A DNA stretch of 11,257 bases from the IMG/VR virus record IMGVR_UViG_2734482772_000014, one strand, 5' to 3'. The position numbers and the translations under genes were made by a program. Below, piece by piece: positions 6,655 through 9,842 of the stretch. Every line of letters starts with the position of its first letter. The first letter of the stretch is position 1. The DNA is from a virus. Its lineage: Duplodnaviria > Heunggongvirae > Uroviricota > Caudoviricetes. The notes under the pieces are model-generated. The model did not search any database. It saw only the letters and a program-made list of their open reading frames with translations, and had not been told where the DNA came from.

Positions 6655-6845
6655 GGAGTCACCGCATAAGGTTCCAATCTTAATAGTGGCGGTGACGTTA
6701 GCAGGGTTGGAACTACCGGACACAAAGGAAACCGGCCTACGCGAACGTAGCCCCACTAACGCCACCATAGATACAGTACGGGCAAGGCCGCTGATTTGAT
6801 GTGCGTGGTGATCGGACACAAAAAAAGACGCTTTCGGCGTCTGTG
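6655..6845 (-). ncRNA. Putative C4/CI-type antisense-RNA leader
   Basis: On the minus strand, two direct repeats UUUGUGUCCG(A/G)U (plus coords ~6811-6824 and ~6717-6730) are complementary to the Icd-like RBS ACACAAAGGAGG (plus 6641-6653). No protein-coding signal with an SD in this interval. Boundaries approximate. Confidence 0.3.
6819..6842 (-). terminator. Short hairpin + U7 (AGACGC-CGAAA-GCGUCU-UUUUUUU): terminator or leader structural element
   Basis: Minus-strand stem-loop followed by 7 U. The stem is only 6 bp, so it may instead be part of the antisense-RNA leader. Confidence 0.3.
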
Positions 6846-7039
6846 TCGCCCTTAGTGTGTTCGGGGTTCCAATCCCGGTTGCTGATTTTGCAGCAACGCT
6901 TGGACTATAACAGCTTTTCTCTGCTAGGTGGTCATACCAGATAAAACCGTAACCCTTTAAGAGTTTTTCCTGTGCACGGCTCACCATCTTTTTGTTGAGG
7001 GTAAGCGCCTCGCGTACTGGTAACGGAACTCCGGGCGCT

Positions 7040-8127: not shown

Positions 8128-8559
8128 TTATGCGGCGGTAAATGCGTCTGGGTAGAGGTTGAGAATGTCGGCTATTTCAGACTTACTAAGCCCCTGATAA
8201 CCCCCTGCGGCGGCGTTGCTGTTAACCAACTGGATAACTCGCATCACATCACCACGGCCCACAAATCTGTAGCGTAGGTGTGCGCCAATGCCATCGGGGT
8301 TCTTTTCGTCTATACGCTCAAGCTGAATATCAAGCCTGCGCTCTAACTCGCTGGCGTAGTTCCTTCCAGACGAAAGGCGGCAATAACGCAGAATATCGTT
8401 TTCTGTCCATCCCTCTATACCAGTACGCAGCATATAGACGCGGGCGCGGTGTTTCTTTGGGGTACGCCTAGGTACTTGTACCGGGCTGGTGGTCGGCGTA
8501 ATATCAGACGTGCGAATATCTGAGTTAGCCGCCTGTAATGGGCGGTTTTTCTTTTTCAT
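8128..8559 (-). CDS. Hypothetical basic protein (143 aa from ATG 8559), coupled to alpA
   Basis: ATG 8559..8557 overlaps the alpA stop (ATGA). Lys/Arg-rich N-terminus suggests nucleic-acid binding. Family not recognised. Confidence 0.5.
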   Translation of the reverse strand: MKKKNRPLQAANSDIRTSDITPTTSPVQVPRRTPKKHRARVYMLRTGIEGWTENDILRYCRLSSGRNYASELERRLDIQLERIDEKNPDGIGAHLRYRFVGRGDVMRVIQLVNSNAAAGGYQGLSKSEIADILNLYPDAFTAA

Positions 8560-8762
8560 CAAGCCACCTTTCCCCGACGTTCTGCCAGCCAGTTGTTAAT
8601 CTCTACCGCATCAAAGGCGGTAATCTTCTCGCCCAGCTTTACCGGACGTGGTAGTGAACCGTTTCTTACTTTACGGTCGATGGTGGATACACTAACGCCC
8701 AGTAATTCAGCCAGGCGGAAGCGTCTGATATAGCCTTTTGTAGGAATAGTGTCGGTGTTCAT
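8559..8762 (-). CDS. alpA: AlpA/Vis-family phage transcriptional regulator / excisionase-like (67 aa)
   Basis: Winged-HTH signature RLAELLGVSVSTIDRKVRNGSLPRPVKLGEKITAFDAVEINNWL typical of the AlpA family; position next to a P4-type integrase. Confidence 0.8.
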   Translation of the reverse strand: MNTDTIPTKGYIRRFRLAELLGVSVSTIDRKVRNGSLPRPVKLGEKITAFDAVEINNWLAERRGKVA

Positions 8763-8764
8763 GC

Positions 8765-8811
8765 TTCCCGTAACCTCTTAGCGATAGTTGTTGCTTCGTT
8801 ACGGGAGGAAG
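8765..8811 (-). promoter_or_regulatory. Inverted repeat spanning the alpA 5' UTR/RBS
   Basis: TTCCCGTAAC (8765-8774) and GTTACGGGAgGAA (8798-8811); on the minus strand the proximal arm covers the likely SD of alpA. Confidence 0.35.
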
Positions 8812-8828
8812 TATCTGTACATATATGA

Positions 8829-8860
8829 ACAATAAAAAGGCACAGTAATGATACTGTGCC
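8829..8860 (-). terminator. Rho-independent terminator for the 321-aa gene
   Basis: Minus strand: GGCACAGUA-UCAU-UACUGUGCC (perfect 9-bp stem) followed by UUUUUAUU; about 20 nt after the stop at 8877. Confidence 0.7.
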
Positions 8861-8876
8861 TGAATAGTTAGCTACT

Positions 8877-9842
8877 CTACCCCTTACCGTTGGCGGCAGC
8901 ACGTAAGTGTCTCAAAATCACATCTTCATTTGTGATTGCTAACGGTGGAATTTCGTCTTTATGAGCCACTATGCAATCCCGCCACTTCTCAGGGCTTATT
9001 TCTTTCTTTTTGCCACGGCATTCATCAGGATACTTTGACAAAAGATATATTGCAGATTTGAAAAGTTTTTCCCTGTTTTCAGCATGTCTCTCGGCATTAT
9101 GGTTGCTATTTTTTATTTCAGGTATTAGTTCCTGTTCTACCGCCATTTCGTATCGTTTTTTGCTCTTAGCTGCGTCAAAACTTCCATTAACCTTTGCGTC
9201 ATGAAGGTATTCTAAATCAGCCTTTGTTATATAAATGTTTTTATCTGACAGGCTACTCAGGTGAATTTGGGAACTTTGCATTTTGAATTTATATAGATCA
9301 CAATCAAATGTTGCTTCAAGTCGCACATATGGTTCTCCACATTCTTGTGAATGATAATGTCGTGTTGTTCTACCGCGTACACGCAACAATCCACATGCAA
9401 TTGATTTTCTTACAATAAAAGAGTTTTTGCCAATTTGTTCAAAAACATTTTTATTGTCGCTGTCTTCAACTGTCAGTGGTTTATGTGCATAAAATAGCTC
9501 ATAAGCACCGCTTTCAGATGCTGGGATATAAACTTCGTTGCTTGCGCTGGTAATAAGAAAAGGAAATGTAAACCTTACTTCTTCTGGGTACATAAGTAAT
9601 AAATCAGTTATAAAATTAGCATCTTTTTTGAAGTGGATGGTGGCATCAGATTCAATGAAATCAAGAAAGTCAGCATAGACATAAAAGTCTATATGTAGTC
9701 TATCTTTCCAATGCCATATATCATCAATTTCACAATTTAATAATTTTGATGCTCGCTCTATCGTGCAGTAGTCCAAAGGTGGAATACCTGATTCCTGCCA
9801 TAAATTTCTATGCACCACAGTTGTTTCATGAGAGTCGTTCAT
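8877..9842 (-). CDS. Orphan hypothetical protein (321 aa), AT-rich cargo between integrase and alpA
   Basis: SD AAGGTGA 7 nt upstream of ATG 9842..9840, stop TAG 8879..8877. Markedly AT-rich versus neighbours (by eye). No Walker A, HExxH or obvious hydrophobic TM stretch; C-terminal third is Lys/Glu-rich. Confidence 0.65.
   Translation of the reverse strand: MNDSHETTVVHRNLWQESGIPPLDYCTIERASKLLNCEIDDIWHWKDRLHIDFYVYADFLDFIESDATIHFKKDANFITDLLLMYPEEVRFTFPFLITSASNEVYIPASESGAYELFYAHKPLTVEDSDNKNVFEQIGKNSFIVRKSIACGLLRVRGRTTRHYHSQECGEPYVRLEATFDCDLYKFKMQSSQIHLSSLSDKNIYITKADLEYLHDAKVNGSFDAAKSKKRYEMAVEQELIPEIKNSNHNAERHAENREKLFKSAIYLLSKYPDECRGKKKEISPEKWRDCIVAHKDEIPPLAITNEDVILRHLRAAANGKG

Follow-up and report, generated by a model that had tools for sequence, protein, structure and literature searches.

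A conserved inverted repeat over the alpA start of an enterobacterial phage satellite clade, probably an RNA lock on translation

Introduction

The rpoS leader contains a hairpin that is opened by DsrA or RprA, and IS50 is subject to the same fold-back inhibition as IS10. In IS10, the element's own transcripts do not carry the 5′ arm and are translated, and transcripts that read through into the element fold back on themselves and are untranslatable (Davis, Simons and Kleckner 1985, as cited in PMC13181058). The vis-eta leader of P4 and the RNA immunity of P1 and P4 have been summarized together (PMC10111431). In Gram-negative phage-inducible chromosomal islands the master activator is AlpA, and its overexpression alone leads to excision and to harmful runaway replication (PMC6092414; PMC11773190). 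How AlpA stays silent, and how helpers turn it on, are open questions (PMC6092414; PMC11773190).

Here we analyse the start of alpA in an 11,257-nt stretch of viral DNA (IMG/VR record IMGVR_UViG_2734482772_000014), hereafter the window, in which a first-pass annotation had pointed out an inverted repeat. Compared with IS10/Tn10, the two loci are alike in that a short inverted repeat has its 3′ arm in the stretch where translation of the key gene is initiated. They would also be alike in having a 5′ arm, here a proposed one, upstream of the gene's own start, so that only outside transcripts fold and a dangerous function is protected from fortuitous activation. The two also differ. The host here is a phage satellite, the gene encodes a transcriptional activator/excisionase-family protein and no transposase, outside transcription would come from the element's own int and cargo genes, and the start-site asymmetry that defines the IS10 case is a prediction. 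Co-directional entry of the IS10 type could come from int and the cargo gene immediately upstream; a terminator stands between the cargo gene and alpA. The rpoS leader is comparable in that its 5′ arm sequesters the initiation region, such that the gene is expressed only once this arm is gone or has been outcompeted; it differs in that we found no candidate activating RNA in the island, and we know of none from helper phages. The mechanism considered below is of a known kind. What sets the hairpin apart is its position on the master switch of a satellite family.

Results

Genetic layout of the island

All long open reading frames in the window lie on the minus strand and belong to a phage-inducible chromosomal island of the Gram-negative type. 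A gene for a P4-type tyrosine integrase, int (11257–9938, −; Arm-DNA-bind_3 and Phage_integrase domains), is followed by a variable 321-aa cargo gene of no confident family (8877–9842, −) and then by alpA (8559–8762, −), which encodes a 67-aa Phage_AlpA/HTH_17 protein; all three are co-directional. The cargo gene matched nothing in Pfam or NCBIfam and only weakly an entry in PADLOC (PDC-S31, E = 0.002). The first gene after alpA, orf144 (8128–8562, −; 144 aa), has a start that overlaps the alpA stop (TGATG), and in the RefSeq annotation of relatives it overlaps alpA by 1 nt; translational coupling of orf144 to alpA is likely. Other island genes on the minus strand comprise an AntA gene, an Ash/Icd-like gene, several small ORFs, a Toprim/D5 primase-helicase gene (4786–2288, −) and an SSB gene. 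Close E. coli relatives have the same gene order and adjoin yicC. Repeats of GTAGGGATA cluster, in either orientation, shortly after the end of the primase-helicase gene (2117–2211) and are probably a replication origin with iterons. A terminator-like hairpin with a T tail faces the genes from the opposite strand (8527–8557, +) at the junction of the alpA stop and the orf144 start (8557–8562, −); on the sense strand, this hairpin falls just after the orf144 start codon.

The arrangement around alpA recalls P4, where the alpA/vis homologue opens a leftward operon, translation of the following ORF is coupled to that of this first gene, and transcription further downstream is under the control of a C4/CI-type RNA (PMC10111431). 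The window has such an RNA as well. Within 6685–6910 (−), in the region of the Ash/Icd-like gene, we found a C4 antisense RNA (RF01695, 82 bits), isrK (RF01394) and a c4-a1b1 target motif (RF03163), and the island therefore has RNA immunity of the P1/P4 type downstream of alpA. With C4-type control downstream, elongation into the operon plausibly depends on whether the first gene is translated. We know of no hairpin over the P4 vis start, and a protein search of the phage collection returned only distant matches, P4 Vis not being among those retrieved.

The slot between int and alpA is a swap-in site in which close relatives (L001–L008) carry unrelated genes of 216–321 aa. One of these genes is annotated as DUF6387 in RefSeq, and none of the seven scanned had a confident match to a defence family. 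The exchangeable gene is framed by two conserved structured elements, the Rfam int-alpA RNA (RF02996; 9863–9929, −; 60.6 bits) between the int stop and the cargo start, and the hairpin at alpA described below. Both are conserved structured RNAs of the int-alpA region of the same islands, but RF02996 is a different element: it has a three-helix shape and precedes the cargo gene, and it lies ~1 kb upstream of alpA in all 13 related loci in which it was detected.

The cargo gene is the likely source of transcription that reads into alpA. It is followed by an intrinsic terminator (8838–8861, −) with a 10-bp stem, a 4-nt loop and a T-rich tail, TTTTATTGTT, that extends to ~8828. This layout fits the first-pass suggestion that alpA is insulated from cargo transcription; the separate gating of alpA that was suggested along with it is something we infer. 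A canonical terminator precedes the hairpin in only 5 of the 55 upstream types found among relatives, so the order of terminator then hairpin holds for the window and is no rule across the hairpin family.

An inverted repeat immediately upstream of alpA

Read along the minus strand, the cargo stop (8877) is followed by the terminator, ~30 nt, the distal arm, the loop, the proximal arm, the trinucleotide AGC and the alpA ATG. In the sense of alpA, the distal (5′) arm is UCCCGUAAC (8798–8806, −) and the proximal (3′) arm is GUUACGGGA (8766–8774, −), separated by a loop of 23 nt (8775–8797, −). The proximal arm fills the spacer between the Shine–Dalgarno (SD) sequence and the AUG, and ends 3 nt before the AUG. 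Direct reading and a repeat finder, which lists the arms as TCCCGTAAC (8766–8774) and GTTACGGGA (8798–8806), agree on 9-nt arms that are 100% complementary and 23 nt apart. The inverted repeat with a spacer of ~23 bp reported by the first-pass annotation is real, and it was correctly placed between the cargo terminator and the alpA ATG at 8762. The longer arms proposed at the same time, TTCCCGTAAC and GTTACGGGAgGAA, hold up for one clean additional pair at most, beyond which a bulge is needed.

Taken by itself, the window sequence does not make the repeat significant. Counting perfect 9-nt inverted repeats with a spacer of 3–40 nt, 1.8 ± 1.6 are expected by chance in an 11.3-kb sequence of the same composition, and several comparable repeats are present in the window. 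What lifts this repeat above chance is its conservation in relatives with compensatory change. RNA folding of the alpA leader, a check proposed from the outset, returned the hairpin at −15.4 kcal/mol (z = −2.6). No Rfam family matched it, and nothing was reported between 8400 and 9000 even at E ≤ 1. We rejected the identification of the stem as an intrinsic terminator, as it is followed by AGCAUGAAC with no U tract, and a terminator scan called only 8861–8838 on that strand.

Conservation and covariation among relatives

We gathered 148 further alpA loci from E. coli genomes, from a set of one genome per species (Leclercia, Enterobacter, Kosakonia, Citrobacter, Klebsiella, Tatumella and Erwinia), from metagenomes and from viral contigs. 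Including the window, 146 of the 149 loci had enough upstream sequence, giving 85 distinct leaders, and the 145 loci with the proximal-arm motif (Enterobacterales) were scored for core pairing. In the case of L011 (CACSKA010000004.1, labelled Chryseobacterium sp. 18061), a contig assigned to a Bacteroidota species carries an alpA island of the enterobacterial type (82% AlpA identity); the assembly is probably contaminated or mislabelled. The repeat stands at the same distance from the AUG in most of the 145 loci, and at least 6.5 of the 8 core pairs are kept in 113 of them. The DNA upstream of the distal arm is unrelated between islands, and in E. coli relatives similarity to the window often starts exactly at the 5′ edge of that arm, at its first C (query position 96, window 8805).

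We tested the 9-pair helix for covariation in a MAFFT alignment of 69 distinct leaders, using 500 shuffles. Helix cells were paired at a rate of 87.3%, compared with 27–41% when the partners were slid. Double-change cells numbered 37 against 9.1 ± 2.6 in the shuffles, none of which reached the observed value. One pair varied as GC (51), AU (10), CG (2) and UA (1), and paired arm variants in relatives include CTCGTAAC/GTTACGAG, CCTGTAAC/GTTACAGG, CCCATAAC/GTTATGGG, CCCCTAAC/GTTAGGGG and CCCCGTTAC/GTAACGGGG. RNAalifold recovered the helix unaided. The hairpin is the minimum-energy structure in the window and in all 12 diverse relatives folded (−12 to −33 kcal/mol), and the relatives have fold z-scores of −1.3 to −8.2. 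When the 69 leaders were made into a covariance model, it matched every locus exactly once, always at the alpA start and in the sense orientation, with no other match in ~575 kb. We conclude that the repeat is a real cis-element under selection in one enterobacterial clade of alpA. With one copy per island, 58 positions and 9 pairs, it is well suited to be proposed as a new curated family of cis-regulatory RNAs.

This pattern of change also bears on whether the element gates anything at all. It could be a 5′ stem-loop that stabilizes the alpA mRNA, or a relic or boundary left by cargo-swapping recombination, as might be expected from a border between conserved and variable DNA that falls exactly at the distal arm and from the survival of seven loci without that arm. 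Compensatory changes, however, amount to selection for pairing itself. A boundary relic would not co-vary with a partner 13–23 nt away, and a stabilizer need not cover the SD–AUG spacer at a fixed distance from the AUG. We consider the absence of any gating role very improbable.

The seven loci without a distal arm (the L084 type) keep alpA and form a distinct sub-group (L084, L092, L124, L013, L093, L132 and L133). The distal arm and the −10-like hexamer discussed below are lost in these loci, with a breakpoint inside the loop, and a different short repeat, TGATAGC/GCTATCA, is found there instead, ~45–65 nt before alpA. In L084, a co-directional cargo gene is still present upstream. Separately, we considered an integron attC site and rejected it, as only the AAC...GTT core is alike and RYYYAAC ... 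GTTRRRY cores for each cassette, together with IntI, would be expected. The hairpin and its loop moreover travel with the alpA allele while the cargo changes, and the integrase is of the P4 type.

RNA hairpin or DNA operator

A conserved inverted repeat may also act as DNA, and the first-pass annotation had offered an operator for a dimeric regulator as an alternative. The two arms would then be half-sites over the start region of the alpA promoter, and AlpA, an island or host repressor and a helper-phage inducer are candidate binders. Transcription of alpA is subject to autoactivation by AlpA (PMC6092414) and to activation by helpers (PMC11773190), and because the DNA upstream of the hexamer is unconserved, any conserved cis-site for such activation would have to lie here. 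The inner core is in keeping with this. GTAAC/GTTAC is near-invariant (as RNA, GUAAC/GUUAC; pairs 18–48, 20–46 and 21–45 are invariant or nearly so) while the outer CCC/GGG changes in step, as co-evolving half-sites would, and a wobble test, with 17 G·U-type against 11 A·C-type cells, did not separate RNA from DNA.

Other features are at odds with an operator. The loop measures 13, 16, 17, 19, 20, 22 or 23 nt among the 69 distinct leaders, and a spacing that runs from 13 to 23 nt with intermediates rotates the half-sites round the helix, which is unsuited to a fixed dimer. We found no further copy of the arms in the window, other promoters and island ends included, or in ~575 kb of related loci. 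Arms identical to those of the window accompany AlpA proteins with different helix–turn–helix sequences (SVSTIDRKVRNG, HVATIDRWVRDK and SMPTIDRWVKNG). Pairing reaches inward onto the SD in some lineages (CUUC/GGAG) and outward across the AUG in another (CAUGCUU/AAGCAUG); outside the 8-bp core there is more complementarity than in permuted controls (run length 0.98 versus 0.55 ± 0.10). Such lineage-specific extension of pairing onto the SD and the AUG has no DNA-level rationale. In the island EcCICFT073, moreover, proteins probably bind upstream of alpA at direct repeats that are in phase, and these form no palindrome. These features favour RNA, and the operator is disfavoured; we think it unlikely, mainly on account of the variable spacing and the lack of extra copies, and the near-invariant inner core and the wobble counts are what remain in its favour.

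We also searched for the AlpA binding element (ABE) of P. aeruginosa, GGGACG-N5-GGTA, which lies between the −35 and −10 of its target promoter (PMC7969949). The window has seven matches at up to two mismatches, none of them near alpA, where 7.6 are expected by chance.

Structure of the alpA initiation region

The ATG at 8762 is the start of alpA because an in-frame TAA lies at 8780–8778. The best SD is AAGAGG (8779–8774), 11 nt from the ATG. The first-pass annotation was mistaken in assigning the only SD-like sequence to the proximal arm, since AAGAGG lies at the 3′ end of the loop, at its junction with the arm; its last G is the base with which the proximal arm begins, and this G and the U after it are all that the stem takes in. 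The position is widely shared, with GGAG or GAGG found 10–12 nt before the ATG in 55 of 57 distinct relatives. The proposal that a stem-loop sequesters the alpA SD consequently survives in an altered form: evolution does preserve a stem-loop over the start, but it is the SD–AUG spacer that the stem buries, with the SD at the junction.

Structure predictions for transcripts that carry both arms agree with this geometry. In the window, the predicted probability of being unpaired is 0.23 for the SD–AUG spacer, 0.20 for the AUG and 0.75 for the SD. We modelled 57 distinct leaders as read-in RNA and found the spacer to be mostly paired in 55, the AUG in 35 and the SD in 26. Opening the region from −15 to +5 cost a mean of 14.2 kcal/mol when the 5′ arm was present and 6.2 kcal/mol when the RNA started inside the arm, and all 57 leaders showed a gap of more than 3 kcal/mol. 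The corresponding costs were 15.4 and 5.2 kcal/mol for L024, whose leader is identical to the window over −15 to +5. De Smit and van Duin reportedly gave rules that relate the structure of an initiation region to translation initiation, and by these rules the extra opening cost of ~8 kcal/mol would lower initiation by orders of magnitude. The hairpin is predicted to be stable enough to hinder initiation, and one of its complementary arms lies within the 30S footprint of the start codon, as expected of a translational lock.

We consider it likely that the hairpin works as an RNA lock on alpA translation. In a transcript with both arms, the distal arm (8806–8798) would pair with the proximal arm (8774–8766), and the closed hairpin would bury the stretch between the SD and the AUG. 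The 30S subunit could then not load, and AlpA, the master activator of the island, would not be made. Because the next gene starts on the alpA stop, the operon further downstream would lose its coupling and be open to polarity if alpA were not translated. As a master switch, AlpA activates its own expression, and too much of it leads to uncontrolled, harmful replication (PMC6092414); for that reason a lock against stray AlpA makes biological sense.

Promoter signal and the transcripts that carry the arm

Which transcripts would be locked depends on where they start. In the window, we read a putative, weak −10 hexamer of an alpA promoter, GATACT (8810–8815, −), which is shifted by 4 nt with respect to the hexamer of relatives and predicts a start at ~8803–8802, inside the distal arm. 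The relatives share an alignment consensus, TAnAAT, that ends 2 nt before the arm in upstream DNA that is otherwise non-homologous. Among 31 loosely independent upstream types, T occupies the last position of the hexamer in 23 and A the two preceding positions in 17–18. When every register from −70 to +39 was scored for a −10 in 17 strictly independent upstream types, this one came out highest (z = 3.4). A hexamer 2 nt before the arm would place the start ~7 nt downstream, again inside the distal arm. The signal is partial: no more than 41% of independent upstream types have a hexamer that exceeds 2 bits, the A at position 2 is often missing (TTTAAT), no conserved −35 was found upstream of it in these types, and strict sigma-70 scans called no sense-strand promoter in the window, L003 or L009. 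It is the position-specific signal across relatives that argues for a promoter, and a weak, activator-dependent one would fit the published biology, which is known from other alpA alleles.

A start inside the arm would make the lock selective. Transcripts reading in from int or the cargo gene through the terminator would carry the 5′ arm and be locked, and alpA's own transcripts, from a weak, activator-dependent promoter, would start within the 5′ arm, lack that arm and be translatable. We put forward this selectivity for read-in transcripts, a form of fold-back inhibition, tentatively and as somewhat short of an even chance. Counting against it are the weak, partial −10 signal, the seven arm-less loci, the absence of such a hairpin from EcCICFT073, the wobble counts and the near-invariance of the inner core pairs, the last of which hints at sequence-specific recognition beyond pairing.

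The same RNA hairpin may instead be present on every alpA mRNA, with starts upstream of the 5′ arm or with upstream promoters only. It would then be a constitutive attenuator that keeps AlpA very low, or a lock opened by some factor such as a helper-phage protein or RNA, temperature or ribosome standby. All of the structural evidence for an RNA hairpin applies equally to this arrangement, and the evidence for a start inside the arm is weak. In several lineages complementarity runs 3–7 nt upstream of the core arm, which implies that the relevant RNA begins upstream; in L078 the best −10-like hexamer is further upstream; and the 11 nt between SD and AUG are in themselves less than optimal, as would suit a leader built to be poorly translated. 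A hairpin of −15 kcal/mol with no visible key would, however, all but abolish AlpA translation. We found no complementary RNA in the island that could serve as a key: no 8-mer complementary to the arms occurs elsewhere on its sense strand, and the duplex energies of C4 and isrK with the leader are no better than with shuffled leaders. A hairpin on every mRNA also leaves unexplained the fixed −10-like register 5′ of the arm in otherwise unrelated DNA. We consider it a serious yet doubtful alternative to a lock that selects for read-in transcripts.

Discussion

A hairpin over the alpA start that acts as a lock would add a post-transcriptional layer to the control of AlpA in one widespread enterobacterial clade. 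Such a lock offers a simple reason why exchangeable cargo with its own expression signals can sit upstream of the master switch with no self-induction of the island. Published alpA reporters are transcriptional fusions and would miss control by a hairpin. Literature searches aimed at a hairpin at the alpA start found no paper describing one, and we found no published experiments on this alpA clade, those in print having used other alpA alleles.

A more ambitious reading is that the hairpin is the point at which a helper phage switches the island on. The translational lock would be the main means of keeping AlpA off, and a helper-encoded factor would open or bypass it. An RNA or protein might bind the 5′ arm, or antiterminated, helper-driven transcription might act together with ribosome loading. 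We regard this as quite unlikely. If true, it would explain how Gram-negative phage-inducible islands sense their helper, and the transcriptional fusions employed to date could not have revealed such control.

EcCICFT073, the island on which experiments have been done, carries a different alpA allele without the hairpin, and its reporter data are for that reason not transferable to this clade. In that island (L151, E. coli CFT073), we observed six direct repeats of the ACAACG type with 10-bp phasing at 8187–8245, after int and upstream of alpA. Proteins probably bind there, AlpA possibly among them. In the loop of the hairpin described here there is a single similar GCAACAAC or AACAACG.
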